A stretch of 64,000 nucleotides of DNA from Candidatus Omnitrophota bacterium (GCA_024231025.1 JAAEQW010000341.1:54155-118154), one strand, 5' to 3'; shown: positions 2,033-25,140, counted from the first letter of the stretch. Notes: generated from the letters alone by a model not told the origin. Program-made: numbers and translations.

Positions 2033-3706
2033 CTATCCTATATCCATTTCCTCACCGAGAAGAGTTCCCACTAACACATTCTCTACTTTCAGGCTCAAAT
2101 TTACCACATTGTCTGCCACCTCTGAAACTGAAGGGACTCTGCCTCTTTTCTCAAATAGCCTGTGCACACAATAGGGGCTAATAATTTGAGAAACGTAACT
2201 TAAAAGCCTTACATCAAACTTAACACGTCCAGTTTTATTTACATTTCGTGAAATAAAATCGGGATGCTGAGTATTGACAATAAGCGAATTTCCTAAGTCA
2301 ATAACTCTATCTTCACCTGCATGGTTTTGAAATTCAATTTTAGGTCCAGGAGAAGTGATAACTTTTTCATTTGAAGATCCTGAAGTAGAAGAAGCTTGTC
2401 CCGCACCGGAACCACCACTTGTATTCGAATCACCAGGACCGCTCTGTCCCGCATCAGAAATGGAACCACCAGAACCTGTACCATTCGCCCCTTCACCACC
2501 GCCACCTGGTACATCTTCTCCACCAAAAGGCACATCACCATCTTGAGAATTAGGCTTTTCATTGTAAGTTCCTGGTTCACCAGAAGGAACTAGTTGCTCA
2601 AACTCTAATTTGAACTTCTGAAGTATCTGCGATAGGCAATCAGACATAATTTTGCTTATTTTTTTAAATGATTCTTGCGTTTTCTTGTTCATAGCATCGT
2701 CAATCAAAATCTTGAGATCTGTCTGCACTTCACGTAATATTTCATAAAGTTTTTCTCTATTAACAGAATCTTTCAAATCATCTCGCGTTAAATTTGGTGA
2801 ACAAACGTTATTGATCTCTATAGATCCCACCACAAACGGATTCGTCCAAACATAACTAATATCGCCATGCAATCGTAGATAGTTCTTAAAGCTTTTTAAG
2901 TCAGATATACTTTGAATGCGACGTCTTTTGTTCGTTAGTACCGGCAAACGATTCTCCTGGGCTTTATCAAGAACTTTTAAATCCACCTCGACAGAAATTC
3001 CCGATTCATCATTATCAAAATTCACCGAACGCTTTAATTCTGGTCCGACAAGTTTGCTGTAATCAAAATATTTACATTCGTAATGCTTCTTACCTTTTTC
3101 ATTAATAAAGATTCTTATCCTTTTAGCACGTAACACATCATCAAAATGATGCTCAATCTCTCCTGCAAGCGCAATAGCAAAACTACTTTTCTTAAAAACA
3201 TGTGGATCAAAACGAGAAATTGTAACACGCGTTCCACAATCAGTTAATTCATTTTTACTGTTTTCATAACAATGCACATCCTTTCTTTCATCAACTGTAC
3301 GATCAATTTTTATCACGGCTTCTTTGCACCCTTTTTTCCTACTTATAAACACGGCATCTTTAGCGAAGGCCCTAAAAGCATGGACCCCAAACCCAAACTG
3401 ACCATTAGCCCAAGCAACTGCCTTTTTCCTCGAACGCCCCACACTGGAAAGCAATTCGCACAATTCATCAGGTGCCATACCAGCGCAATTGTCGGTAAAA
3501 CTGACTGTTTTCTTGTCGGCATCTATGTGTATTTCGATGCGTGGAACCATTCGCTTACTTTGAAACTCCGGCATAGAGGCGGCATCTATAGAATTATCTA
3601 TATACTCCATAGCTGCTCGATAAAAGTCCTTATACGTTCCTGAAATCTGATTAATTAATTCATTTTGATCCCTAATTTGCAAACGTGTCTTCGCTATAGT
3701 TTTCAT
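2033..3706 (-). CDS. GHKL (Bergerat-fold) ATPase, MORC/MutL-like, with long Gly/Ser/Asp-rich linker and C-terminal domain
   Basis: N-box EYIDNSIDA, G1 box FTDNCAGM, G2 box GQFGFG within first ~110 aa; low-complexity GGGEGANGTGSGGS... linker; 4-nt overlap with upstream gene. Confidence 0.7.
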   Translation of the reverse strand: MKTIAKTRLQIRDQNELINQISGTYKDFYRAAMEYIDNSIDAASMPEFQSKRMVPRIEIHIDADKKTVSFTDNCAGMAPDELCELLSSVGRSRKKAVAWANGQFGFGVHAFRAFAKDAVFISRKKGCKEAVIKIDRTVDERKDVHCYENSKNELTDCGTRVTISRFDPHVFKKSSFAIALAGEIEHHFDDVLRAKRIRIFINEKGKKHYECKYFDYSKLVGPELKRSVNFDNDESGISVEVDLKVLDKAQENRLPVLTNKRRRIQSISDLKSFKNYLRLHGDISYVWTNPFVVGSIEINNVCSPNLTRDDLKDSVNREKLYEILREVQTDLKILIDDAMNKKTQESFKKISKIMSDCLSQILQKFKLEFEQLVPSGEPGTYNEKPNSQDGDVPFGGEDVPGGGGEGANGTGSGGSISDAGQSGPGDSNTSGGSGAGQASSTSGSSNEKVITSPGPKIEFQNHAGEDRVIDLGNSLIVNTQHPDFISRNVNKTGRVKFDVRLLSYVSQIISPYCVHRLFEKRGRVPSVSEVADNVVNLSLKVENVLVGTLLGEEMDIG

Positions 3707-5061
3707 ATTTTACATCCTCCTTTTATTATTCGATAACGAGTTTGGCTACCCTCGCCTTCCCTAATCACTTCACCTGTAGCCATCAATAGCTTAATCAATA
3801 CATAGGCTCTGCCAGGATTTAAGCGCGCATGTGTTGCTAGCTCGCGCGTCTGTAGACTACCGAATTCAGTTAGTACATCACGTATACAGTCTAGATCTTG
3901 CATTCTCTTAATGCAAGCGATTCTAGATCTATGTTCTATCCATGGTCTAACAGATTCAATGAAAGTAGGAGAAGCAGGTATATTTAATTCCTTTCTAAAG
4001 CTATCAATTGACCCCCAACACCTTCTAATGCTAGCTTCCAGATAACGCCATTTCCGATTAGACTGCAACACTGCAGTATTTGGATTATACCCAATTTCAT
4101 CCTTGATCTTTAGGTATGCTTTAATAATGTCTCTTTTTTTTCGAGATAAAAGTAATAACTCAATATCTTCATTTTTTATTTGATGTACAATTAGCAATCT
4201 TTTTACGTAATTTGAAGATACATTATTTGCCTTAGCCACTTTAGACAATGCTTTCAAGCGATAAAAGTCTTTAAGCAATTTTTGTTTGGATATGTATGGA
4301 TATTCATTCCCTCTATATTTGAACAATTTATATTTTGTACCTTTAACGAGAATCTGACGAATTCTTTGTCTGCTCAACTTTACGATTTTTCCAACATATT
4401 CTAAAGTCCCTCCTTCATTATAAAGATCAAAGCATTTTTTATAAAAAGTAATCCTGTCTGGAGAAAGAGCACTCCCTGCCGCTTCATTGATAATTCGTAA
4501 AGTGCCCGGATATTTAATTCTTAGGTTGCTTATCGCTACACCAGGTTTGCTAGATCCTTTTATTTTTTTATCTATCTCGGATTTCCAACCTATGGGCAAT
4601 CTCATGTTAAGGGACAAATCAATCTTAACCAATAAATTAGATATTTCCAACAATGTTCTCGTGCCGCTATTTTTTTCGCTTGCGATTAACTCTTCAGAAA
4701 GACACACCAAATCGAATAAAAAACTAGACCCTAATTTTTCTAGGATATTTCTTGCGCGCGCCGATAGTGGAATATCCAACAAAGGAATACACAAAACATA
4801 TGTTAAATACTCCAAACGCTCCTTTTTTTCTTGGTTTGTCAATCCATTCCCCTCTAAAGCAAAATTCCGTTGATTCAGTTTGAAATAATTGAAATAATCT
4901 ATTATTTCATTCACAGTTTTTACGCCTAAATTTGGTATAGATAATAACTCTCGCCTACTCAGCCTCATGCACTGAGTTTCAGTTTCAAAACCCTGTTCTC
5001 TTAAAGCATTTTTAGCCCTTACCGACAAGGACATTCTGCGCAGTTTTTTCTTTTTCCTCAT
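3703..5061 (-). CDS. multi-HTH DNA-binding protein with two RNAP alpha-CTD-like helix-hairpin-helix modules and a sigma70 region-4-like HTH
   Basis: Two segments resembling RpoA CTD (LSVRAKNALREQGFETETQCMRLSRRELLSIPNLGVKTVNEI and LSARARNILEKLGSSFLFDLVCLSEELIASEKNSGTRTLLEI), VGKIVKLSRQRIRQIL sigma r4.2-like HTH, C-terminal wHTH-like segment. Confidence 0.5.
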   Translation of the reverse strand: MRKKKKLRRMSLSVRAKNALREQGFETETQCMRLSRRELLSIPNLGVKTVNEIIDYFNYFKLNQRNFALEGNGLTNQEKKERLEYLTYVLCIPLLDIPLSARARNILEKLGSSFLFDLVCLSEELIASEKNSGTRTLLEISNLLVKIDLSLNMRLPIGWKSEIDKKIKGSSKPGVAISNLRIKYPGTLRIINEAAGSALSPDRITFYKKCFDLYNEGGTLEYVGKIVKLSRQRIRQILVKGTKYKLFKYRGNEYPYISKQKLLKDFYRLKALSKVAKANNVSSNYVKRLLIVHQIKNEDIELLLLSRKKRDIIKAYLKIKDEIGYNPNTAVLQSNRKWRYLEASIRRCWGSIDSFRKELNIPASPTFIESVRPWIEHRSRIACIKRMQDLDCIRDVLTEFGSLQTRELATHARLNPGRAYVLIKLLMATGEVIREGEGSQTRYRIIKGGCKI

Positions 5062-5279
5062 AATTTAAATTTCTTATGCTTTGGGAAACGAAATCTAGCT
5101 TTAGCCTCACGAATTTTCGAATCAATAGCAGAAAATATCTTCACTATGTCAGATTGAGAATATTCATAAACACTTCTGTTAGAGCAATTTCCCAAAATTT
5201 TAAGCTTTTTTAATACTTCATTTGTTCTCTTTTCTGCCAATTTTCTAAAGCGTTCAGCCTTTTCACTATTTTTATCCAT
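5058..5279 (-). CDS. small 73-aa protein, paralog of 11033..11254; first gene of the operon, possible regulator
   Basis: ~40% identity to the 73-aa ORF at 11033..11254 (shared ERF+++A.KR.N...L.IL.NCS.R..Y.FS....K.F.AID...AK..F); 4-nt overlap with downstream gene. Confidence 0.5.
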   Translation of the reverse strand: MDKNSEKAERFRKLAEKRTNEVLKKLKILGNCSNRSVYEYSQSDIVKIFSAIDSKIREAKARFRFPKHKKFKL

Positions 5280-5559
5280 AACATCTCCTTGATAAATAAC
5301 ATGTTTTTTTAGTAAATAAATGGCTTATTTACTAAATAATACCATTATTCTCTAAAAAAGTCAAGTAAGCCGCTATAATTGCGAAAATGCTAGGATGTCC
5401 CTCCCTCGGCAAGCGCAGTCGTCCGGCTTCATCTGCCAGGGGCAGATTCCGCAGCGTTCTTTGTGCGCTTGCCTCACCCTCCGATATAAGGTAGCCAATC
5501 CTAAACGCCCACCGCGGCCAGAAGAATATTTTCCGGATTAAAAACGAAATTTTTCGATA

Positions 5560-5946
5560 CATTAAAAGCCCGACGAAGGTGGGTGGCTAAGGCAGGCTAA
5601 AGAACCTTACGAATTCACCAACCAAGGTGGTTTTGCAGGCTCTTAGCGCAGGTGCTGTAGTGCCCTAGCACGAAAGCCCGAGCACAGAGACTGCTTGAAT
5701 AAGCGAGCGCCAAGCGAGTGGCCAAGCGAAGCCCCCGGCCCCAGCCGGGGCGAGCGGATCTTTCGCCACCCACCTAGCCCCGCCCTAGCGGGGCGGCACA
5801 GGTATCAGATTAAAGGTTTTGCTTTCTGCATTGGCGAATGGTATTCGGAATCACAATAGTGAAGAAATAATTCGAATCTAACCTGAATGGGGAGCCAAAG
5901 TCTTCTTTTCGAAATTCGTCCCGCCCAAAAGGCGGGACTTTTTCTT
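5560..5946 (+). ncRNA. candidate structured RNA of unknown class (GC-rich, multi-hairpin, ends in a terminator)
   Basis: Local GC ~60-70% versus ~35% background; long-range pairing GGTGGGTGG (5583)/CCACCCACC (5771); hairpins GCCCCGC-CUA-GCGGGGC and CCCCGGC-CCCA-GCCGGGG; no convincing ORF; 3' terminator hairpin. Confidence 0.25.
5917..5946 (+). terminator. rho-independent terminator (GTCCCGCC-caaaag-GGCGGGAC then TTTTTCTTTTT)
   Basis: 8-bp GC stem plus T-run read directly from sequence. Confidence 0.6.
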
Positions 5947-8452: not shown

Positions 8453-8489
8453 TTGAAGATATTTTTGAAAATTGAAGACTTTTTGAACA
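8453..8489. repeat. 37-bp direct repeat, copy 2 (identical to 1..37)
   Basis: Exact match to window start; preceded by GC hairpins at 8361..8385 and 8424..8446. Confidence 0.8.
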
Positions 8490-8590: not shown

Positions 8591-8607
8591 TGGCTCCCCG
8601 GGTAGGG
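8591..8607. repeat. 17-nt duplicate of the tRNA-Asn 3' end (candidate att site of integrated island B)
   Basis: TGGCTCCCCGGGTAGGG here is identical to 20812..20828 (reverse complement of the last 17 nt of the tRNA including CCA); lies ~150 bp from the serine recombinase gene end. Confidence 0.65.
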
Positions 8608-8720: not shown

Positions 8721-8762
8721 AAAATAAAAATCCCCCGCAAAATGCGGGGGATATTTTATTCA
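8721..8762 (-). terminator. rho-independent terminator downstream of serine recombinase gene (probably bidirectional)
   Basis: CCCCCGC-aaaat-GCGGGGG stem flanked by A/T runs on both sides. Confidence 0.6.
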
Positions 8763-10369
8763 TGGCTCCCCGAAGAAACTTCAGGAACAATATCTCCCCG
8801 GAGCACCTGAGTAATATCGCTTCTAAACCTTTTAGACACTATACCAACTTGAACCTTGTCATTTCCTATCTTGATGTGTTGTAAAATCCAATTCAGAATA
8901 AACCTTTTCTGATAAAGTTTAAGGTGATCTTTAAATATCTCATCGAAAGAGCCAAGTAACCGCTTAACATCACCCTCCTCTAAAGACTGTACCTTTACGG
9001 CATTGATCTCACGATTAAGATGATCTATATTATCCATCATCTTTCTACGCCTATCATCCAATTCAGATAGCTTTTGCTCCACGAATGTCCTGCCTTTATC
9101 GATATTCATAAGATTATCCATAACTTTCTTGGCTTTAGCATTCACACTTTCAAGCTCAACGGCAAACACGCGTTTTTGCTCTTTAAGGCTGGGCAGTTGC
9201 CTGCTGAATTTCTCGTTTAGCTTTTCAGTAATCTTATGGAGCATAAGAGGAGTAGAGACGGCTGATTGCGTAAGGCGTTGAACGGCTAATTCGAGTTCCC
9301 GCTCCGGAACCTTAAATTTACACTCATCATTTGTACAGTAATAATAATAGTAAACTTTTCCGCTCTTGCCGTGCCCATTTCTTCCTTCCATTCTTGCACC
9401 ACATTGATGACAGCAAAGCACACCATTAAATATATACGTGTGTTTTGTAGGCTTTGCGCCATTATTCCGATGTTTGTAATTTTCTTTCAAGAGTTGTTGG
9501 GTTTTTTGGAACTTGCTCTCGTCGATAATAGCCGGCCAAACAGCCTTGCAAGTTGAATATCTCATTTTTTCCGGCAAAGATTCTTGTTTTTCAGCTTTAC
9601 GTTTTTTATTGATCTCTTTCATCCCAATATACGCCTTGTTGCTTAAAATCTTCAATATTGAACTATAGCAAAATTTCTTTGCCGGATGATATCTGTCACG
9701 ACGGGAGGTGTACTCTTTTGATAAGTAACCTTTTTTATTTGCTATTATAGCAGTTCTGACAACTGAACCGTTTTCAAGATAGGTATCAAATAGGAAACTT
9801 ACAACTTTAGCCTCCTTTTTATTAGGGATGAGATAACCTTTTTTGTTTTTATCTTCATCATATCCCAACAAAGGAACACCGCCATTAAATAACCCTCGTT
9901 GAGCTCGCGCATAAAGCCCTGAGATTGTTCGCTCGGAACATTGCTCTCGTTCAAATTGGTTTAATGCTCCCATTATCGTAAGGAAACATTTGCCCTGCGA
10001 CGTTGTTGTGTCAAACTGTTCCTTCAGGCAAACAAAATCTACTTTATTTTTATTGAAATAATCAACCATATCCAAAAGATCCCTTGTTGAACGGCTTATC
10101 CTCGACAAAGCAACGCACAGAACAGCATTGATCTTACCATCCTGTATGTCAGACATCATTCTAAGATACTCTGGGCGATTTGTATTCTTAGCAGAAATAC
10201 CTCGATCTACGTATGTGTCTACAATCACCCATTTCTGTTTAGTTGAGCTTGATTTCATCCTGACGTAATCTCGAAGCATCTGTTCTTGATTCTTGAGAGA
10301 CCCTTCTTCCAATTTCGCCTGCTTCTCAGTACTCACGCGTTGATAAAGGCTACATCTTTTTATTTCCAT
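8756..10369 (-). CDS. large serine recombinase (serine integrase type)
   Basis: N-terminal resolvase catalytic domain (YQRVSTEKQ with catalytic Ser, VALSRISR), recombinase domain, Cys-rich zinc-ribbon region (CCHQCGARMEGRNGH...YYYYYC) and C-terminal coiled coil; 537 aa. Confidence 0.85.
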   Translation of the reverse strand: MEIKRCSLYQRVSTEKQAKLEEGSLKNQEQMLRDYVRMKSSSTKQKWVIVDTYVDRGISAKNTNRPEYLRMMSDIQDGKINAVLCVALSRISRSTRDLLDMVDYFNKNKVDFVCLKEQFDTTTSQGKCFLTIMGALNQFEREQCSERTISGLYARAQRGLFNGGVPLLGYDEDKNKKGYLIPNKKEAKVVSFLFDTYLENGSVVRTAIIANKKGYLSKEYTSRRDRYHPAKKFCYSSILKILSNKAYIGMKEINKKRKAEKQESLPEKMRYSTCKAVWPAIIDESKFQKTQQLLKENYKHRNNGAKPTKHTYIFNGVLCCHQCGARMEGRNGHGKSGKVYYYYYCTNDECKFKVPERELELAVQRLTQSAVSTPLMLHKITEKLNEKFSRQLPSLKEQKRVFAVELESVNAKAKKVMDNLMNIDKGRTFVEQKLSELDDRRRKMMDNIDHLNREINAVKVQSLEEGDVKRLLGSFDEIFKDHLKLYQKRFILNWILQHIKIGNDKVQVGIVSKRFRSDITQVLRGDIVPEVSSGSHE

Positions 10370-11395: not shown

Positions 11396-11475
11396 TTAGC
11401 AAAAAAGGTAAAATCCTTTACTCGGTTAAAAACCACCCTACATTTGAATGTAGACGAATTAGACAGCTATTCTGT
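11396..11475. repeat. ~75-nt repeated intergenic element, copy a (hairpin GGTAAA-n4-TTTACC plus CTACATT-TGA-AATGTAG palindrome)
   Basis: Shares AAAAGGTAAAATyCTTTACy...CTACATTT.AAT..AGACGAATTAGA.AGCTA.TC with copies at 12205..12280 and 18655..18715. Confidence 0.6.
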
Positions 11476-11541
11476 TATTCTTTTACGATCACACCCCTCT
11501 TTATCATTTATCTTAAAGCCATGCTGTGATAAAATGACATC

Positions 11542-12186: not shown

Positions 12187-12204
12187 CTGATTTTAAAATA
12201 GACT

Positions 12205-12280
12205 TAAAAGGTAAAATTCTTTACCCTATCAAAAGCTACTCTACATTTAAATACAGACGAATTAGAAAGCTACTCCTATC
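12205..12280. repeat. repeated intergenic element, copy b
   Basis: See 11396..11475. Confidence 0.6.
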
Positions 12281-13053
12281 TTCTTTTGTGCTTTGAGGAA
12301 TAATCGCTTTGAGACAATGGGCGGGTGTGTTCCTTGGACATGAAAATTACCAAAGCTGGTTTCACCATAATACATCTTATTTCTTAAAACATACTTTAAA
12401 GATTGAATCTGAAATTGTTTACCTCGTTTAGTGGTTGCTCGTAACTTATTAAGCTTACGAACAATGGTTGTATATTTATGTCCCTTAACTAGCCACCTAA
12501 ATATTCTGACTACGTTCTTAGCTTCAGTTGGTTTAATCTCGAGCTTCTTGCCAACCTTAACATAACCAAAAGGTATCGGTCCAGACCCACGTTCACCGTT
12601 CTTAGCGTTATTAATTCTCCCGTCTTTAAGGCGGGCAGTAATAACGTCCTTTTCTAATTCAGCAAAAACATCAGCAATACGCTTAAAAGCTTTCTGTAAA
12701 GGGTCATCTAGATTATATTCTGGGTCTACTACAGAATTAATCTCGATGTCATGTTTCTTGAATTGTGTCTCAAGCCAAAGAGATACAGTCAACTCGCGAC
12801 TCAACCTATCTTGTTTGTAAACAATGACATTATCAATAAGACCATCTTCGCAATCCTTTAATAGTCGCAACAAACCCGGCCTTTCTTTTATCGCACCACT
12901 AATACCCTTATCTTCATAAAATCTGTTAAGCTCCAGATTCTTATCCTTACAATATGCCTCAATCTTATCTCTCTGGATTTCTAATCCTTCGCCGTTTTCG
13001 ACTTGATTAGCAGTTGATACTCTGAGATACCCTACATTATATCTAGATTGCAT
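12262..13053 (-). CDS. serine recombinase (resolvase/invertase-type catalytic domain plus recombinase domain, 263 aa)
   Basis: GYLRVSTANQ catalytic motif, VYKQDRLSRE; shorter than the 537-aa integrase (no zinc ribbon or coiled coil). Confidence 0.8.
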   Translation of the reverse strand: MQSRYNVGYLRVSTANQVENGEGLEIQRDKIEAYCKDKNLELNRFYEDKGISGAIKERPGLLRLLKDCEDGLIDNVIVYKQDRLSRELTVSLWLETQFKKHDIEINSVVDPEYNLDDPLQKAFKRIADVFAELEKDVITARLKDGRINNAKNGERGSGPIPFGYVKVGKKLEIKPTEAKNVVRIFRWLVKGHKYTTIVRKLNKLRATTKRGKQFQIQSLKYVLRNKMYYGETSFGNFHVQGTHPPIVSKRLFLKAQKKIGVAF

Positions 13054-13221: not shown

Positions 13222-14406
13222 TTAGTTCTTGCCGATAACGTATTTTTTAAAATAGTTCTTAGTACCTCCGAAGTACGTTTTAACCCTAGCAATACCAAAA
13301 AAATCATAATATCGCTTAGTAGTGGATCCATCCTGTGCTATGTCTCGTTTTTTAGCATATCGTGCATAAAATGGCTTGTCTTTTGGAGATAGAACGACAT
13401 CAATGCATGCGCTTGGTCGTATCGCCCGTCTAAGAAGCGTTCTTAGGTGATAGTCGGCTTCTGGCAAAGAATACCCCACAAAAACAACCCTATCCGCTGT
13501 GGCTAATTCTGCGTAAGCATTATACCATACTGTCCTTATATGAATATTATCAAAATTCTTTTCAAAGGTCGGCGTAATAATATACGGTTGCAAGACGTGT
13601 TTGTTCTTTTTTCTTCTTACTGTGTGCCCTAGACAATGCTTACAAAAACTATCTTGCACGTACAGTTTTCGCCCCTCATTTGCCCCTAACCCTGTATACA
13701 TCCTGTTACAGTTGGGACAAAAAAGCCAATTAATGGAGCCATGTAGTTTAAGAATTTTTATTCTGTTTTTTTCCTCTTGATTAACAGGCGGAATGGCTAT
13801 CCCGTCACAATCTTCCTTTAGTCGCAAAATGCAACAACAAAAATCTGTGCTGATTTGTTGCTTTTTGTTTTTTGTTTTCTTGGTAATTTTATACACAGAG
13901 TCTTCTAGCAAAGAGTCCCAATTCAAAGATATTACGCTGAGCCTATTTCCTCTTGACCGTTTTTTTATCGTCTCTTTAACAAAATGACTTGCTAAAGAAT
14001 CATAAAATTTATCACCGGTAGTTTCTGAACGTAAAGAAGCTTCATGGAATACAGTTAAAATAAGCCGTTTCAAATCGTCTCTAATACTGTCTAACTCTTT
14101 CCAAGAATAATCAAAACAATTACGTCGTTGCGCTATGGTTTGATCTAGCAATGTAAATAAGTCTTCTAGACTAGGTAGGGCGTTGGGATAAAATATCTGA
14201 TCAATAAATTCTCTGAGCTCTTTTCTCCGAACAAGACTTTCGCCATACAATATATCAAACTTTTGGGAAAAAACTTTAGTTAAAATGAGTCGCTGCAAGG
14301 GAAACCCCGCACCATACGAGAATCCTGCTCCGAATACATAAACTGTCTTGGTAGGTAGGGCTGTTCTCACTTCAGTTTGAAATGTTGGTTTAGCACCTTG
14401 GCCCAT
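13222..14406 (-). CDS. SIR2_2-family sirtuin-like protein (defence-type SIR2)
   Basis: N-terminal Gly-rich NAD loop VYVFGAGFSYGAGFP, LHGS motif (KLHGSINW), zinc ribbon CPNCN...CKHC, Rossmann strand VVFVGYSLPEADYHL. Confidence 0.7.
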   Translation of the reverse strand: MGQGAKPTFQTEVRTALPTKTVYVFGAGFSYGAGFPLQRLILTKVFSQKFDILYGESLVRRKELREFIDQIFYPNALPSLEDLFTLLDQTIAQRRNCFDYSWKELDSIRDDLKRLILTVFHEASLRSETTGDKFYDSLASHFVKETIKKRSRGNRLSVISLNWDSLLEDSVYKITKKTKNKKQQISTDFCCCILRLKEDCDGIAIPPVNQEEKNRIKILKLHGSINWLFCPNCNRMYTGLGANEGRKLYVQDSFCKHCLGHTVRRKKNKHVLQPYIITPTFEKNFDNIHIRTVWYNAYAELATADRVVFVGYSLPEADYHLRTLLRRAIRPSACIDVVLSPKDKPFYARYAKKRDIAQDGSTTKRYYDFFGIARVKTYFGGTKNYFKKYVIGKN

Positions 14407-15788
14407 ACAATACAGTGTCGAACACCGTCTGGCCCAAGAACTTTTTCTAGAGTGCCTTTAGTTTTATTAAGATTTCTAACAATTTCTTTTATGGTCGGCG
14501 TGTTATGATACTCCCGTTTCTTGCACCACATATAATGTGTCACAGTCTTGTTTTTTGTCTCGGTAGCCGGGTATGGCTTGCCTTTTGCAGAATGCTTCAT
14601 TTCTCCATATTCTTTAAATTCACTTTCCGGATTATTTTTTATAATATCCTTACACATTTTACAACTACAAACCGTTTTATAATATCCTGTGATTGTTTTT
14701 GAACCCCCCACAGCACGAAGGGCACGAAGGGCATCGCGGAAAAGAAGTCGCGTGTGTAGTTGTGGAAAATAAAATTTTGCCGCAGGAAAGCCTCCACCCA
14801 CAGGAACAACTCCACGATATTCACCGTATTCTAAACTATGTGCGACCCCTACTAGATTTGGCGTTATCCCGCTTTTGCCTAAAGCCACGGAAAAAAATCC
14901 CCCGTACAGATTTGCTACTGGAGCAATTTGCCCTAGCCTATTAATTAAATTAATTAAGGCTTCTAGCTTTATGGCCGAAGCATCTTGTTCATACAAATCG
15001 TCTACCCACAATAAGAAAATGTCCGGCTTAACTTTTGCATATTCTTCTACGAGCATATCAATTTTTTCATTATCTATTAAGATATCCTGAGATATAACAA
15101 TTTGGCTTGCCAAAGGTTTCTTTTTTGCCTTTAAAATTTTCTTAGAAATTTTAGAACACATTACATTTACCTGCAACCACTTTTTAAATTCACTTTCGAA
15201 TAAGTAAAAATATGGTGCTACAATAGTTGTCGGAGAAAACATATCCGACACTTTTAGCCCGATATATCTGTAATACTTTGCAGCATCGGATCCTTCCAAT
15301 TCCCTAGAAACGGTTTCCAGCTGAAAGTTAATAACTCTCTGACAAAACCCCCGTGTTACTGACGAATCTTTAAAATCTTTGGGAATAAGTGGTCGTTTTT
15401 TATTAAGTATGCTCGTTTCTACAGGCTCACCGAAGGCATCTATTAATTTTTTAATTGATTTCTTTATTTGCCCTTTTGATTTTTCAGATTGAGACTCTAT
15501 AAGGCTCAAATCATGCTGAAAGGCATGCGTTTGAGGGTCTATTATATACGGCTTATTTTTTGCCTTTGTGGAAATAAACATAGCTATCGCGCTTGTCATA
15601 TATGCCATAATGTTTGCATTCACAATAAGCTGATCATAGGTGGCCAAAAGACTGCCTAGCAAAAACTTCTGATCAGCGGCTGTTCCAAACCGTACTAAAT
15701 GAAATCCTGCTATTGGCTTCATGCTTCCTGAACGTCTTGTTTGTTTTTTTGGATATACTTTTTTATCCATGTTTTTCCTACTCGCCAA
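14367..15788 (-). CDS. hypothetical protein with weak tRNA-guanine transglycosylase (Tgt/DpdA)-like features
   Basis: C-terminal CSCKMCK...H (CxCxxC..H) zinc motif as in TGT; LYGGFFSVALG and LVGVAHS resemble the Tgt GGLAVGE and LMGVGKP segments; weak, by eye only. The 40-nt overlap with the SIR2 gene suggests the true start or stop may differ. Confidence 0.35.
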   Translation of the reverse strand: MASRKNMDKKVYPKKQTRRSGSMKPIAGFHLVRFGTAADQKFLLGSLLATYDQLIVNANIMAYMTSAIAMFISTKAKNKPYIIDPQTHAFQHDLSLIESQSEKSKGQIKKSIKKLIDAFGEPVETSILNKKRPLIPKDFKDSSVTRGFCQRVINFQLETVSRELEGSDAAKYYRYIGLKVSDMFSPTTIVAPYFYLFESEFKKWLQVNVMCSKISKKILKAKKKPLASQIVISQDILIDNEKIDMLVEEYAKVKPDIFLLWVDDLYEQDASAIKLEALINLINRLGQIAPVANLYGGFFSVALGKSGITPNLVGVAHSLEYGEYRGVVPVGGGFPAAKFYFPQLHTRLLFRDALRALRAVGGSKTITGYYKTVCSCKMCKDIIKNNPESEFKEYGEMKHSAKGKPYPATETKNKTVTHYMWCKKREYHNTPTIKEIVRNLNKTKGTLEKVLGPDGVRHCIVWAKVLNQHFKLK

Positions 15789-16138
15789 ATTTCTCTAGAG
15801 CGTGGTGCTGATATAACCTCTTCAAATGGCCACCGTCCGTCCTCGCGATAAAACTTAAGACCAACTCCTGCTGATTTGAGGGCTCTCCTCATTTCTTGCG
15901 TAATTTTGCGCTTGGGCATACACACGTAAGAAAAGTCTGCTCCTAATTTATGGTCGTATGATTGTCGTATCGCTCTGCGCCAATTGAAAAGCTTAAACTC
16001 TATGGCAACAACTGTATTATTTTCAATATAAACTAGATCCGCAAACCTCCCCAACACAGGAACCTCACGGCACACATCCATTGAGAAATGTTGCGTCAAT
16101 CGTTTATAAGCACTATCCACAAGGGTTCGTTCACACAT
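15719..16138 (-). CDS. small PD-(D/E)xK-fold nuclease-like protein
   Basis: GRFADLVYIEN...VVAIEFKL gives a D...ExK motif in a beta-strand context; 139 aa; the overlap with the upstream ORF suggests an internal start. Confidence 0.5.
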   Translation of the reverse strand: MCERTLVDSAYKRLTQHFSMDVCREVPVLGRFADLVYIENNTVVAIEFKLFNWRRAIRQSYDHKLGADFSYVCMPKRKITQEMRRALKSAGVGLKFYREDGRWPFEEVISAPRSREIWRVGKTWIKKYIQKNKQDVQEA

Positions 16139-16724
16139 TGCGCTTCTTAAAAATCCTTTCCGCTATTTTGGAGTTTGTTGCCATTTTAGGATATTTTGTA
16201 TAAACATATCTCAACAGAGCATACAAAGAGATCTCTAAGCAACGACATTTAAAAGTATGAACACCCTCCCATTGCTCTGCTGTTAAATTTCCCAAATTGC
16301 CATCTTTAACAAAATTTAAACCATTGTTCGTTAAAGAAAATTCAACTGCGTTATTGCGCTCGTTATCAGAACCACCTGCTATTCCTGAACTCACCTGCCA
16401 ATATTCATACTCACACATATCTTCTTCTGCCTCCTTGTCCGAACACGAAGGCCGCGGATTTACAAAGCCAAGGTTAACTAAAAACTCTAGGTCTGCGTAG
16501 ATTTGATCCGCAAAAGGTCCATAGTCATACGGCTGGAAGTCAGGAAAAGCAGAGTCCGGAATGGCTTTTTCCAAATTGAACTTAGCACGGATTTCTTTCT
16601 GAAACAAGAAAACCATTTTTACCATACGAATGCGTGTTCGTATCGGTTCGTTCTTTTGCCCCTTATATCCTTTGGCATAAAGCAATAGCATTATAATATC
16701 TTTTGTGCTTGTTATTTTCGCCAT
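16131..16724 (-). CDS. hypothetical protein (197 aa), first gene of the SIR2 operon
   Basis: ORF overlapping the downstream gene by 8 nt; no motif recognised. Confidence 0.45.
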   Translation of the reverse strand: MAKITSTKDIIMLLLYAKGYKGQKNEPIRTRIRMVKMVFLFQKEIRAKFNLEKAIPDSAFPDFQPYDYGPFADQIYADLEFLVNLGFVNPRPSCSDKEAEEDMCEYEYWQVSSGIAGGSDNERNNAVEFSLTNNGLNFVKDGNLGNLTAEQWEGVHTFKCRCLEISLYALLRYVYTKYPKMATNSKIAERIFKKRNV

Positions 16725-16891
16725 GTTTCCCTTTGCATGTTCTTGCCTCTATTTTTATTATAAATCCGTTTCCGGCATAATCAAGAACTTCTTGGCCCGG
16801 CATTTTCGCTGTTTTTGATCTCCACACTACACCTTATATAACAAAGGGTTTGTTTTATTGACACCTGTTTCATTCTTACTATAATAAAGCC

Positions 16892-17701
16892 ATGAAAGAA
16901 ATCGATACTTATTTATTCCACTACGCAGAAAAACAATATGACACCCAAACTGCTTTACTAAGAGACATAAACACAAAGATAGCCAATGTGCTTGTTGCTA
17001 TAGGTTTTTTGTTAACCCTCACTGCCTATCTGGCTAATGCTATATTTAAATTACAATTAGAGCCATGGTTGCTCTTACCACTCTTAACCCCCTCGATCCT
17101 GGGTGCATATAGCTTCTTAAGGGCTCTAGGCAGAGTTATACATTTTTTGAGGCTCCAAGAATATAAGCTACCGTCTATGGAGGCAGACATTCAAAAGGCA
17201 ATCATAGATCTGCAAAAGAAAAACAAAGATGAAACAAACGAAAGTGATATTCTTCAGGATCTTACCCAAAATTATATTACAGCTTTTAATGATAACATGA
17301 CTTCGGGATCAGAAAGGCACAAGCTTTTCAAGATTCTCGTCAACTATATTCGTAACGGGATTATATCAATTATTATATCTTTTGTGGTTTTATTTTTTAT
17401 AAAAACACCCACCTGTCTATTGACCGGTAAAGAAAAAAGGGAGGAAGTAAAAATGATAAGGAACATGGACCAGGAAAAAGAAGAAGAGCAAAAACAAGAC
17501 AATGAGCCTAACAACGAAAAAAATAATAGTGCCCAGCCTCAGGAACCGTCACAGGAACCTGAAAAAACTCAACAACCGTCTGTTCTCGGCAATCCAACGC
17601 TAGTGACAGCGTCTGATCATTCTACAGATTCTGAAACGGTGAGTTCTGACGATAATAAATCAGAAAGCAAGCCAGAAAACGAATCAGAAAAACAGGAATA
17701 A
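16892..17701 (+). CDS. hypothetical membrane protein with acidic low-complexity C-terminus
   Basis: TM segments (VLVAIGFLLTLTAYLANAIF; IISIIISFVVLFFI); C-terminal E/Q/N/S-rich tail. Confidence 0.5.
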   Translation: MKEIDTYLFHYAEKQYDTQTALLRDINTKIANVLVAIGFLLTLTAYLANAIFKLQLEPWLLLPLLTPSILGAYSFLRALGRVIHFLRLQEYKLPSMEADIQKAIIDLQKKNKDETNESDILQDLTQNYITAFNDNMTSGSERHKLFKILVNYIRNGIISIIISFVVLFFIKTPTCLLTGKEKREEVKMIRNMDQEKEEEQKQDNEPNNEKNNSAQPQEPSQEPEKTQQPSVLGNPTLVTASDHSTDSETVSSDDNKSESKPENESEKQE

Positions 17702-18654: not shown

Positions 18655-18715
18655 CAGATTTAAAAGGTAAAATTGTTTACCTACCTATTAAAGTCGCTAC
18701 ATCGATAAACTAAAG
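18655..18715. repeat. repeated intergenic element, copy c (partial)
   Basis: AAAAGGTAAAATTGTTTACC...CTACAT shared with copies a and b. Confidence 0.5.
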
Positions 18716-20811: not shown

Positions 20812-21232
20812 CTGGCTCCCCGGGTAGGGCTCGAACCTACGACCTATTGGTTACAGTTACCCTCTAAGTTTCCTTAAAGACTGGACTATATCATTACCGT
20901 CCCGCCATGGGCGGGATACGGTATCAGGCGCTTCGACCCCGAAATTTCGGGGGCTACTCCCTCGCGGGATAGTCTCTGCACGTTCTCCGAATAATCGGAG
21001 CTTCGCTCAGGATTGCCATATTCTTACGAACTTAGGTTTCCCTGAATTCACCTGATTCTTCACTCTACAGTTTCCTGTAGAGGCTGCCATGCACCGAGAT
21101 CCTTCGACTCAGTCGACCTAAGGTCTCCTTCACTCAGGATCAATTCGGCTATATAATTTTTCTGCCGTTTTTGGCCTGAAAAATTATAGTCTCATTGACA
21201 GCCAACCGCTCTACCAATTGAGCTACCGGGGA
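20812..21232 (-). tRNA. tRNA-Asn(GUU) interrupted by a 345-nt group I intron in the anticodon loop (exons 21198..21232 and 20812..20852); CCA encoded
   Basis: 5' exon UCCCCGGUAGCUCAAUUGGUAGAGCGGUUGGCUGU and 3' exon UAACCAAUAGGUCGUAGGUUCGAGCCCUACCCGGGGAGCCA fold as a standard cloverleaf (U8, A14, G18G19, TTCGAGC T-loop; anticodon loop CU-GUU-AA). The splice follows U35 and the intron ends with G. Confidence 0.75.
20853..21197 (-). ncRNA. group I self-splicing intron within the tRNA
   Basis: Intron contains R-like element GUGCAGAGACUAUCC (plus 20965..20980 as reverse complement) and S-like element GAUAUAGUCC (plus 20882..20891), which can form P7 GACUA/UAGUC. Candidate IGS GCAG pairs with exon end CUGU (U.G at the splice site). 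No intron ORF. Confidence 0.65.
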
Positions 21233-24543: not shown

Positions 24544-25140
24544 CTAAACTTGTTTTCTGTCTAAAAGTGCCTGACCAAGAGTTGCCGAATCAATATACTC
24601 AATTTGAGTACCTAAGGGAATACCGATTGCAATACGATAAATCTTAATCTTAAACGGTGATATCTTCTCAATTAAATATTGAGCGGTTAATTCTCCGTCG
24701 TTATCGGGATCAGTTGATATCACAACCTCTTTTATTTGCCCCTTTTGCAAGCGGTTAAGCAACTTACCAACGCTTAAATCCTCTATATTCATACCATCAA
24801 GCGGCGAAAGAGAACCAAGCAGGCAGTAGTAAAGCCCCCGATAGTGAGAAGTTTTCTCGATTGCCATAATGTCTTTCGGTTCTTCAACAATACAAATTTC
24901 CTGGGCATTTCTCTTTGGATCTGAACATATACTGCAAACATCATCGGTCGTAAAATTATTGCAAAGCTTACAGGGTCTTATTGACTTATGCATGTCTGCA
25001 ATATTTTTGGCCAAATTTTCTACATCGGTGGGTCGCATTTTTAAAAGGTAAAAAGCCATACGCTCTGCGGAACGCTTGCCAATCCCCGGAAAACGAGAAA
25101 AATTATCTACTAAGTCATTGAAAATTTTAGGAAATGCCAT
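24544..25140 (-). CDS. recR: recombination protein RecR
   Basis: HhH motif FSRFPGIGKRSAERMAFYLL, C4 zinc finger CKLCNNFTTDDVCSICSD, Toprim region with DPDNDGE. Confidence 0.9.
   Translation of the reverse strand: MAFPKIFNDLVDNFSRFPGIGKRSAERMAFYLLKMRPTDVENLAKNIADMHKSIRPCKLCNNFTTDDVCSICSDPKRNAQEICIVEEPKDIMAIEKTSHYRGLYYCLLGSLSPLDGMNIEDLSVGKLLNRLQKGQIKEVVISTDPDNDGELTAQYLIEKISPFKIKIYRIAIGIPLGTQIEYIDSATLGQALLDRKQV

Follow-up and report, generated by a model that had tools for sequence, protein, structure and literature searches.

A mobile four-gene cassette joining a TGT-fold protein to nuclease-like and Panacea-like partners and an exchangeable SIR2 or membrane protein: a candidate conflict system

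We analyzed a 64,000-nt stretch of DNA from Candidatus Omnitrophota bacterium (the window) and found that its minus strand, at 13222-16724, carries a 3.5-kb cassette of four co-directional overlapping genes, here called A, B, C and D (Table 1). On balance, the cassette is probably an abortive-infection or toxin-antitoxin type of conflict system, mobile and self-contained, in which a fixed A-B-C core is combined with an exchangeable toxic effector. An ORF check recovered all four reading frames that had been proposed in a preliminary description of this DNA.

Table 1. Coordinates of the cassette and of the element that carries it, counted from the first nucleotide of the window.
Feature	Position	Strand	Remark
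gene A	16131-16724	-	ORF, 197 aa
gene B	15719-16138	-	ORF, 139 aa
gene C	14367-15788	-	maximal ORF from TTG, 473 aa
gene D	13222-14406	-	ORF, 394 aa
sigma-70-like promoter match TTGATT-16-TATAAT	16757-16784	-	~30 nt upstream of gene A start
direct repeat, right copy	8591-8607	.	other boundary of ~12.2-kb element, near large serine recombinase gene
direct repeat, left copy	20813-20829	.	tRNA-Thr(UGU) 3' end; one element boundary
tRNA-Thr(UGU)	20813-21232	-	group I intron interrupts gene
large serine recombinase gene	8756-10369		right repeat copy just beyond

Genes A and B share 8 nt, ATGTGTGA. The start of gene C is most likely the ATG at 15722, which gives a 451-aa protein. This ATG forms an ATGA overlap with the stop codon of gene B and has AGGAAG upstream, and the alignment with C homologues begins only at about query residue 16-24. 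Gene D may likewise start at an alternative GTG at 14370, in a GTGA overlap with the stop codon of gene C. With these revised starts, the true overlaps probably come to 8, 4 and 4 (or 40) nt, so that the overlaps themselves were borne out but the earlier range of 8-70 nt was not. They are consistent with translational coupling. The promoter-like sequence upstream of gene A is a consensus match only, and matches in this region are no more numerous than in shuffled sequence.

The 3' end of a tRNA-Thr gene is the insertion site of a ~12.2-kb element, which carries the cassette as its main cargo. The element has two serine recombinases and is bounded by the two copies of an exact 17-nt direct repeat, TGGCTCCCCGGGTAGGG. 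The repeat, the tRNA-Thr(UGU) 3' end and the large serine recombinase gene together bear out the integrated island that had been suggested.

None of the outcomes that the preliminary description had named as refuting it was observed. One of them was that homologues of these genes never co-occur; of 76 non-redundant loci in other genomes, 74 carry A, B and C together. The A-B-C loci come from >20 phyla, archaea and CPR bacteria included. Because the same genes stand together in 76 non-redundant loci, the arrangement is not a matter of chance. The order was ABCD in 30 of these loci and the circular permutation CDAB in 14. The fourth gene was a SIR2 gene in 46 of the 76. SIR2 was absent from 27, which carry a small multi-pass membrane protein, X, between A and B instead. 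X is 150-180 aa long (~170), evolves fast and has 2-3 strongly hydrophobic segments; a Pfam search with it returned generic membrane-protein noise and no family. In a neighbor-joining tree of C, the ABCD and A-X-B-C loci were interleaved, which points to repeated exchange of the effector. SIR2 is not a fixed partner of A-B-C but alternates with the membrane protein.

The distribution of the cassette is patchy, with 996 clusters (~1,000, at 50% identity) among 1.84 billion representatives. Its flanks are variable. When flanking gene types were counted by recurrence, a count made without a background set for enrichment, recombinases and restriction-modification genes recurred most, and integrases and resolvases were the commonest families. 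Neighbors in other genomes include Abi_2 with type I restriction-modification, BglII/MT-A70 with HigBA, and TIR_2/DUF87, as well as transposases, integrases, PglX and methylases; the flanks are otherwise unrelated. Several loci sit among housekeeping genes, so the association with defense islands is only moderate. No 7-deazaguanine biosynthesis gene was seen among 126 immediate flanking genes, in keeping with the earlier remark that no queuosine or 7-deazaguanine precursor gene lies nearby. Three radical SAM neighbors considered as candidates for such genes proved to be MtaB, a B12-binding radical SAM protein and an NrdG-like activase. A tblastn search with C found no copy in plasmid and phage collections.

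Two loci were set aside. Contig L039, from a metagenome bin labelled 'E. coli', had been considered as an E. coli copy of the cassette; none of 5,426 complete E. coli genomes contains a match to it, and it is thus probably mis-binned. In locus L075, one ORF fuses residues 15-352 of C with residues 54-341 of D. It was rejected as evidence of interaction, being a deletion product that has neither the zinc domain nor the GAGFS motif.

The predicted structure of C (pLDDT 93.8) has TGT and DpdA as its best structural matches. Its fold is a TGT-type (beta/alpha)8 barrel, nearer to TGT-family structures than to generic TIM barrels, and structural comparison placed it nearer to tRNA TGT and DpdA than to Cap10. 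Identity to TGT and DpdA is 9-11%. The model carries a helical insert of ~90 residues after beta-3 and a long helical extension at the C-terminus. The zinc site CxCxxC...H, reported earlier, held up well across the family: all 70 sequences have C368, C373 and H412, and 69 have C370. With hhalign, this motif aligned with C302/C304/C307 of E. coli TGT, in an alignment that covered the zinc motif and one adjoining segment only, at a probability of ~1%.

Sequence searches with C gave little else. Pfam PF01702 (TGT), at E up to 1, matched neither C of the window nor any of 54 homologues; Pfam, NCBIfam, PADLOC and PHROGs returned nothing specific; and phmmer and profile searches against PDB sequences had no match. 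The family S6PP_C was dismissed for C at 22.9 bits, below its threshold of 34.4. The active-site region also seems to depart from TGT. Placing residues by motif order and predicted secondary structure, we assigned an invariant Asp78 to the end of predicted strand beta-3. The beta-8 segment reads GVxH(G/S)LEYGE and has no Asp, with H311 in 67 and E317 in 69 of the 70 sequences. It appears from this placement that GVxH(G/S)LEYGE replaces the GxDxFD motif with the TGT nucleophile Asp, so the chemistry of C may differ, or C may only bind. The TGT-like assignment made earlier therefore stands for the fold and the zinc motif; it does not extend to a sequence match with PF01702, and the nucleophile Asp is apparently not kept. 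The predicted structure best fits a zinc-containing enzyme of the TGT superfamily that forms a new clade, related at the level of the fold only.

B, judged by its conserved residues, is a single-domain PD-(D/E)xK nuclease-like protein. E3, E47, K49, Q59 and G93 do not vary in a 35-sequence alignment, where D34 and D68 reach at least 90% conservation, so that the D..ExK residues noted before are invariant or nearly so. The core motif E...D...ExK...Q of the superfamily is present. All model matches were below threshold and fell mostly within the PD-(D/E)xK superfamily (MmcB-like, 0.0012); other weak matches were HSDR_N, NucS_C, NERD, PDDEXK_9, Hjc and PDB 1y88.

A had been left as an unknown 197-aa protein. 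Its ORF was upheld, but it need not be called unknown: it resembles winged-helix proteins such as Panacea/DUF4065 and the DarG C-terminal domain, an antitoxin-type domain. The fold, a winged helix with a helical domain, comes nearest to that of the C-terminal, toxin-binding domain of DarG, for which homology to DUF4065 has been reported. The winged helix is also similar to PadR/MarR. SocA_Panacea (PF13274) did not match A of the window, which falls below the Pfam threshold; 17 of 54 homologues matched weakly, at best with E 4.7e-4. The JGI name for A homologues is 'YwgA'. Panacea antitoxins neutralize unrelated toxins, membrane disruptors included (PMC8832971).

D scored 28.9 bits against Pfam SIR2_2 (PF13289), whose gathering threshold is 24.5. 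D is not a housekeeping CobB-type sirtuin: against the NCBIfam CobB-type model it scored 14.8 bits, where the cut-off is 243. Matches to the PADLOC SIR2 and Aga_SIR2 models were at 2.7e-9 and weaker. Across 41 family members, W163, D164, H222 and C230 are invariant, and GAGFS, N162, C233, C255 and C258 are at least 90% conserved. The SIR2_2 assignment and the motifs listed for it (GAGFS, LNWD, KLHGS and the four-Cys zinc ribbon CxxC..CxxC) were thus confirmed. No close solved relative was found, the SIR2-like chain 8w9l being a marginal match (E 0.052). With its catalytic residues intact, D is presumed to be a NAD+-consuming effector. Neither D nor X has a recognizable signal-sensing domain, which makes their route of activation guesswork.

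We infer the following working. B and C, translationally coupled, would form a nucleic-acid surveillance module, perhaps as a complex. In foreign DNA or RNA, a guanine-type base would be engaged by the TGT-like base-flipping pocket of C, which includes the invariant Asp78 at the end of beta-3 and the conserved His311/Glu317 after beta-8. This substrate would be held by the zinc subdomain, a part typical of TGTs that bind nucleic acid, and B would bind or nick it. In uninfected cells, A may bind the toxic component directly and so restrain it, in the manner of Panacea antitoxins and of the DarG C-terminal domain. Triggering of the core would lift this block, whereupon SIR2 would hydrolyze NAD+ or the membrane protein would depolarize the cell, and phage replication would stop or the cell would die. 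A more specific version is possible but doubtful. In it, C is an active nucleic-acid transglycosylase or glycosylase in immunity that flips a guanine-type base out, removes or exchanges it (maybe phage 7-deazaguanines or a tRNA base) and, with B, frees the SIR2 or membrane toxin from its Panacea-like inhibitor.

Several other explanations were weighed against this conflict-system reading. The similarity of A to Panacea and to the DarG C-terminal domain would also suit an addiction module that stabilizes its mobile element and has no part in phage defense, with A as a PanA-type antitoxin and D or the membrane protein, possibly B and C as well, as toxins. The membrane protein directly follows A in A-X-B-C loci, like a PanA-PanT pair, the cassette of the window is cargo of an integrative element, and integrases and resolvases lead among the flanking families. 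We regard this as unlikely. Simple addiction would not call for a pair like B-C, strictly conserved and rich in invariant residues, and the plasmid and phage collections hold no copy detected by tblastn of C. Many toxin-antitoxin modules also defend against phage, however, so addiction overlaps with the conflict-system reading more than it excludes it. Adjacent housekeeping genes, that is, a tRNA-modifying TGT paralogue and a protein deacylase sirtuin brought together by chance, were already disfavored and are extremely improbable. Some loci do lie among housekeeping genes and the zinc ribbon of D is as in classical sirtuins, but the cassette is patchily distributed (996 clusters among 1.84 billion representatives), the flanks vary, the cassette of the window is on a mobile element, CobB-type models are far below threshold for D, and a membrane protein replaces SIR2 in a third of the loci.

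Restriction-modification of the Dpd kind is unlikely. C would then mark host DNA with a non-canonical base, B would cut unmarked DNA, A would act as transcriptional controller and SIR2 would be accessory. It is true that C keeps the zinc subdomain of tRNA- and DNA-acting TGTs that Cap10 has lost, that B, nuclease-like by its motif, always accompanies C, and that the winged helix of A is similar to PadR/MarR. Dpd systems can draw preQ0 from housekeeping synthesis, which also counts for this explanation. Yet the flanking genes include no DpdB/ParB-like ATPase, DpdC or QueC/D/E/FolE, the radical SAM neighbors being MtaB- or NrdG-like and not QueE. B, of only ~135 aa, has no specificity domain, and the cassette is present in CPR bacteria with minimal metabolism. 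Motif comparison suggests that the TGT nucleophile and preQ-binding residues are not kept in C, and a SIR2 gene that takes turns with a membrane protein gene is a pattern typical for suicide effectors and not for restriction-modification. It is quite unlikely that C acts on a protein, with nucleic acid not its target, as Cap10 does. A precedent exists in immunity, where a TGT-fold protein has come to target proteins (10.1101/2025.04.06.647259), and C always has partner proteins. On the other hand, a QueC-like Cap9 or QatC partner is absent from the cassette and flanks, C keeps the zinc site that Cap10 lost and lies structurally nearer to tRNA TGT and DpdA, and the A-B-C core does not change between loci with SIR2 and loci with a membrane protein as fourth gene.

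The part that enzymes of the TGT and QueC folds play in immunity is a recent discovery (Cap9/Cap10 deazaguanylation, QatC, Dpd). With the cassette comes a third TGT clade, distinct in structure, which comprises ~1,000 clusters (50% identity) from bacteria, archaea and CPR lineages, with its own fixed partners, an exchangeable SIR2 or membrane effector and no adjoining deazaguanine-synthesis gene. If it is a defense system, a base-flipping tRNA-modification fold would have been turned into a sensor of foreign nucleic acid, and a Panacea-type inhibitor could gate NAD+ depletion. Should C prove active in immunity, it would be the first nucleic-acid-directed sensor or effector of the TGT superfamily, with a new trigger of NAD+ depletion. 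If C is a base-specific DNA or RNA transglycosylase with a new specificity, it would be of interest as an enzyme tool. Because the cassette is small (3.5 kb) and found in cultivable hosts, such as Moorella mulderi DSM 14980, Halanaerobium saccharolyticum and Pseudomonas cuatrocienegasensis CIP 109853, it is directly testable.

No named or candidate system in PADLOC-DB v2.0.0 (2023) matches the cassette components. At E up to 1, B and C had no match there; A matched only part of PDC-M19A and a type I S-subunit model, and D only generic SIR2, Aga_SIR2 and, weakly, PDC-M18A. The searchable literature does not describe this cassette, and the pairing of SIR2 with a TGT-fold protein, which the preliminary description did not recognize either, has no matching system in either source.

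Compared with TGT and DpdA, C has a similar barrel and zinc site CxCxxC...H, but it is accompanied by a nuclease-like protein, a Panacea-like protein and either SIR2 or a membrane protein, and the cassette has no DpdB, DpdC or preQ0 genes as in Dpd systems. In type IV CBASS, Cap10 acts with Cap9 in deazaguanylation of the CD-NTase, a TGT fold repurposed for protein targeting (10.1101/2025.04.06.647259). Cap10 has no zinc site, whereas that of C is invariant; Cap10 binds a protein N-terminus by remodelled surfaces and needs the QueC-like Cap9, and the cassette has no QueC-like gene. The BREX-related BRC systems with TGT and GNAT (Nucleic Acids Res 2026, PMC12839542) are likewise a predicted defense context for a TGT homologue, but their seven components are built around PglZ, BrxC-like and HerA proteins and share no partner with the cassette. 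The fold of A is nearest to the toxin-binding C-terminal domain of DarG, although the macrodomain and DarT of DarTG are absent. As in the membrane-toxin pairs of PanA-PanT, a small membrane protein follows A in A-X-B-C loci; PanAT has two genes and the cassette four, and the conserved, predicted enzymatic pair B-C has no PanAT counterpart. Like the SIR2 proteins of DSR1/DSR2, Thoeris ThsA, SIR2-HerA and SIR2-APAZ/pAgo, D belongs to the SIR2_2 family, keeps its NAD-binding and catalytic residues intact and lies in a mobile element. Unlike those systems, the cassette has no TIR, HerA, pAgo, SLOG or tail-tube sensor domain, and D is small and stand-alone, with a four-Cys zinc ribbon and weak PADLOC SIR2 matches. 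In the sister cassettes a membrane effector occupies the same slot, as it does in CBASS, Thoeris and Pycsar.

The cassette consists of four ORFs, A (Panacea-like), B (PD-(D/E)xK nuclease-like), C (TGT-like; TGT, tRNA-guanine transglycosylase) and D (SIR2_2), arranged head to tail on the minus strand. The four ORFs of the preliminary description are confirmed with the coordinates listed in the table, and their start sites are corrected here. It gave overlaps of 8–70 nt. The 8-nt A/B overlap (ATGTGTGA) stands, and the 70-nt B/C overlap is probably shorter: an in-frame C ATG at 15722, preceded by AGGAAG, overlaps the stop codon of B (ATGA), and alignments of C homologues begin only at about residue 16–24 of the maximal ORF. 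C is therefore probably 451 aa long and overlaps B by 4 nt. A GTG overlapping the stop codon of C (GTGA) is a possible start for D; the alternative ATG at 14406 gives a C/D overlap of 40 nt. A divergent ORF with hydrophobic segments and a low-complexity acidic/Ser-rich tail adjoins the cassette. It had no Pfam match and was not conserved beside the cassette in other loci.

Features of the cassette and its surroundings in the window
Feature	Position	Strand	Detail
A	16131-16724	minus	ORF, 197 aa
B	15719-16138	minus	ORF, 139 aa
C	14367-15788	minus	maximal ORF, 473 aa
D	13222-14406	minus	ORF, 394 aa
Promoter match for A	~30 nt upstream of A		TTGATT-16-TATAAT, consensus match only
Divergent ORF	16892-17701	plus	269 aa
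Promoter match for divergent ORF	16858-16885		TTGACA-16-TATAAT, perfect match
17-nt repeat, copy 1	8591-8607		just beyond large serine recombinase gene
17-nt repeat, copy 2	20813-20829		3' end of tRNA-Thr(UGU) gene
tRNA-Thr(UGU) gene	20813-21232	minus	split in anticodon loop by 344-nt group I intron
Group I intron match	20862-21106		Rfam RF00028, 101 bits
37-nt direct repeat	1-37, 8453-8489		exact, 8452 nt apart
Intergenic motif	11401-11484, 12204-12287, 18660-18683, 25041-25064		short inverted repeat
Giant ORF	43665-63908	minus	single ORF, 6747 aa

The preliminary description had placed the cassette inside an integrated island, and a repeat pair bears this out. The 17-nt sequence TGGCTCCCCGGGTAGGG is present twice in the window, and the two copies delimit an integrated element of ~12.2 kb. 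Alongside the 3.5-kb cassette, it carries two serine recombinases, a family-A DNA polymerase and a weak Rep-like gene.

The intron-split tRNA-Thr(UGU) gene was missed by standard ARAGORN and recovered with the ARAGORN intron option. The known group I introns of tRNAs interrupt those for Leu, fMet, Arg and Ile, and Thr(UGU) may therefore be an unusual host. The 37-nt direct repeat TTGAAGATATTTTTGAAAATTGAAGACTTTTTGAACA could stem from a tandem insertion or from another integrated element next to this one; its first copy touches the window edge and its second ends just before the 12.2-kb element. Copies of the recurring intergenic motif (T/A)AAAAGGTAAAAT.CTTTACC, two of which extend to 82 nt with 79% identity, might act as terminators or as regulatory or recombination sites of the element. 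Within the giant ORF, G+C climbs from ~0.38 to ~0.45 from roughly 52 kb on.

The C family is rare but widespread: among 1.84 billion representatives it forms 996 clusters at 50% identity (E up to 1e-3). Scanning a single genome of each species gave 75 loci, spread over Omnitrophota, Planctomycetota, Verrucomicrobiota, Bacillota, Bacteroidota, Campylobacterota, Pseudomonadota, Actinomycetota, numerous CPR lineages and three archaea; Moorella mulderi, Halanaerobium spp. and Pseudomonas cuatrocienegasensis are among the cultured hosts. Searching the ORFs of every locus with A–D showed A, B and C together in 74 of 76 non-redundant loci, so the genes do co-occur in other genomes. Of the other two loci, one was cut at a contig end and one had no B match. 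Phage and plasmid collections and complete E. coli genomes yielded no copy.

Three gene orders were observed. ABCD was found in 30 loci, and in two more if a locus that has an additional SIR2-like protein upstream and a locus on a truncated contig are counted; its circular permutation, CDAB, was found in 14. The remaining order, A-X-B-C (27 loci), is without SIR2 and carries X, a fast-evolving protein of 150–180 aa with two or three strongly hydrophobic segments, for which a family search gave no specific family. Among cultured hosts, Moorella mulderi DSM 14980 (L027) has ABCD, Halanaerobium saccharolyticum (L042) CDAB and Pseudomonas cuatrocienegasensis CIP 109853 (L066) A-X-B-C. The neighbour-joining tree of C shows CDAB as a monophyletic group. 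ABCD and A-X-B-C are intermingled in it, and this mixing points to repeated exchange of the fourth gene. In L027, an 835-aa protein (3434-5938) that ends in a SIR2-like domain (E 7e-17 to D) sits directly upstream of ABCD; it may be a distinct SIR2 defence gene of the same island. In an Aminicenantes MAG (L075), an in-frame ORF (4040-5905) fuses C residues 15–352 to D residues 54–341. It has neither the zinc subdomain of C nor the GAGFS motif of D, and probably represents either cassette decay or an error of assembly.

Neighbours at other loci included Abi_2 and a type I restriction-modification system (L001), BglII/MT-A70 with HigBA and TraG (L002), a transposase, an HNH protein and an SMC-like ATPase (L004), and TIR_2, DUF87 and a methylase (L083). 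In two loci the cassette is surrounded by housekeeping genes. The 126 immediately flanking genes matched 157 families in all, so there is no further conserved partner; the commonest were Phage_integrase (5), Resolvase (4), DNA methylases, PglX, HNH and SocA_Panacea.

No sequence model recognised C, neither the window protein nor any of 54 homologues. An AlphaFold2 model built on these homologues was confident (pLDDT 93.8, pTM 0.92), and, independently, the best 50 Foldseek matches listed were all TGT entries (E ~1e-5, probability 1.00). Among 70 sequences, archaeal ones included, D78, P79, T81, P186, Y187, G326, Y334, C368, C373, H412 and E420 are invariant, and C370 (69/70), E317 (69/70) and H311 (67/70) nearly so. 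With hhalign, the CxCxxC motif aligned to C302/C304/C307 of E. coli TGT. Judged by motif order and predicted strands, IDPQTHAFQ would correspond to TGT TDSGGFQ, which holds the general acid/base Asp, and GVxH(G/S)LEYGE, without Asp, to the GxDxFD nucleophile segment. The barrel face is highly conserved, and the chemistry of C may be altered compared with TGT. On the fold match, conserved residues, zinc motif and motif comparison, C represents a new clade within the TGT superfamily, zinc-containing and deeply diverged. The earlier TGT-like assignment thus holds for predicted fold and zinc motif, but not at the level of sequence models.

D passed the Pfam SIR2_2 threshold (28.9 bits against 24.5) and matched the PADLOC SIR2 and Aga_SIR2 models. 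CobB-type deacylase models scored far under their cut-offs, so D is the SIR2_2 protein originally proposed and not a housekeeping CobB-type sirtuin. Invariant residues in 41 family members are W163, D164, H222 (in KLHGS) and C230, and conservation is at least 90% for GAGFS, N162 and the remaining three zinc-ribbon Cys. No close relative of D was found among solved structures. For B, the D..ExK motif behind the proposed nuclease fold is conserved in a 35-sequence alignment: E3, E47, K49, Q59 and G93 are invariant, D34 and D68 at least 90% conserved. By its residues this is a PD-(D/E)xK signature, and weak matches fell mostly within that superfamily. Homologues of A carry the name 'YwgA' in JGI, and 17 of 54 weakly matched SocA_Panacea. 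Homology between DUF4065/Panacea proteins and the domain at the DarG C-terminus that binds the toxin has been reported (PMC13621843), and Panacea antitoxins neutralise unrelated toxins, membrane disruptors included (PMC8832971).

The anatomy of the cassette is directly observed; for its substrate, trigger, protein contacts and phenotype, we infer the following. The reading with most support is a self-contained conflict system, abortive-infection or toxin-antitoxin-like in kind. Its core, B and C, would sense or process nucleic acid by means of a base-flipping TGT fold, which has a zinc subdomain, and a mini-nuclease; A would be a Panacea-type inhibitor or regulator. The executioner would be D, through NAD+ depletion, or in its place X, through membrane damage. 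A pure addiction module overlaps with this reading, and a set of housekeeping genes is essentially excluded.

A restriction-modification system like Dpd, in which the TGT relative DpdA acts on DNA, is disfavoured. The fourth gene alternates, the cassette is present in CPR hosts, and C has apparently lost the TGT nucleophile motif. Among the flanking genes, DpdB, DpdC and the preQ0 genes are absent and none of the radical SAM neighbours is QueE, in agreement with the earlier remark that 7-deazaguanine precursor genes are not nearby. A protein-modification role for C like that of Cap10 is likewise disfavoured. The second TGT-fold protein of immunity, Cap10, binds a protein and no longer has a zinc site (10.1101/2025.04.06.647259), whereas C keeps the zinc site, and a QueC-like partner is absent from the cassette and its flanks.

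PADLOC-DB v2.0.0 holds no model for B or C and no system of this composition. Full-text searches that combined TGT or transglycosylase with SIR2, Panacea and defence yielded unrelated systems only, namely type IV CBASS, QatABCD, Dpd, BRC and Dag glycosylases. The cassette is a candidate defence or toxin-antitoxin system whose parts belong to known superfamilies and whose core includes a new TGT clade. Its fixed core, combined with either a SIR2 or a membrane module, matches the pattern of suicide effectors in CBASS, Thoeris and Pycsar.
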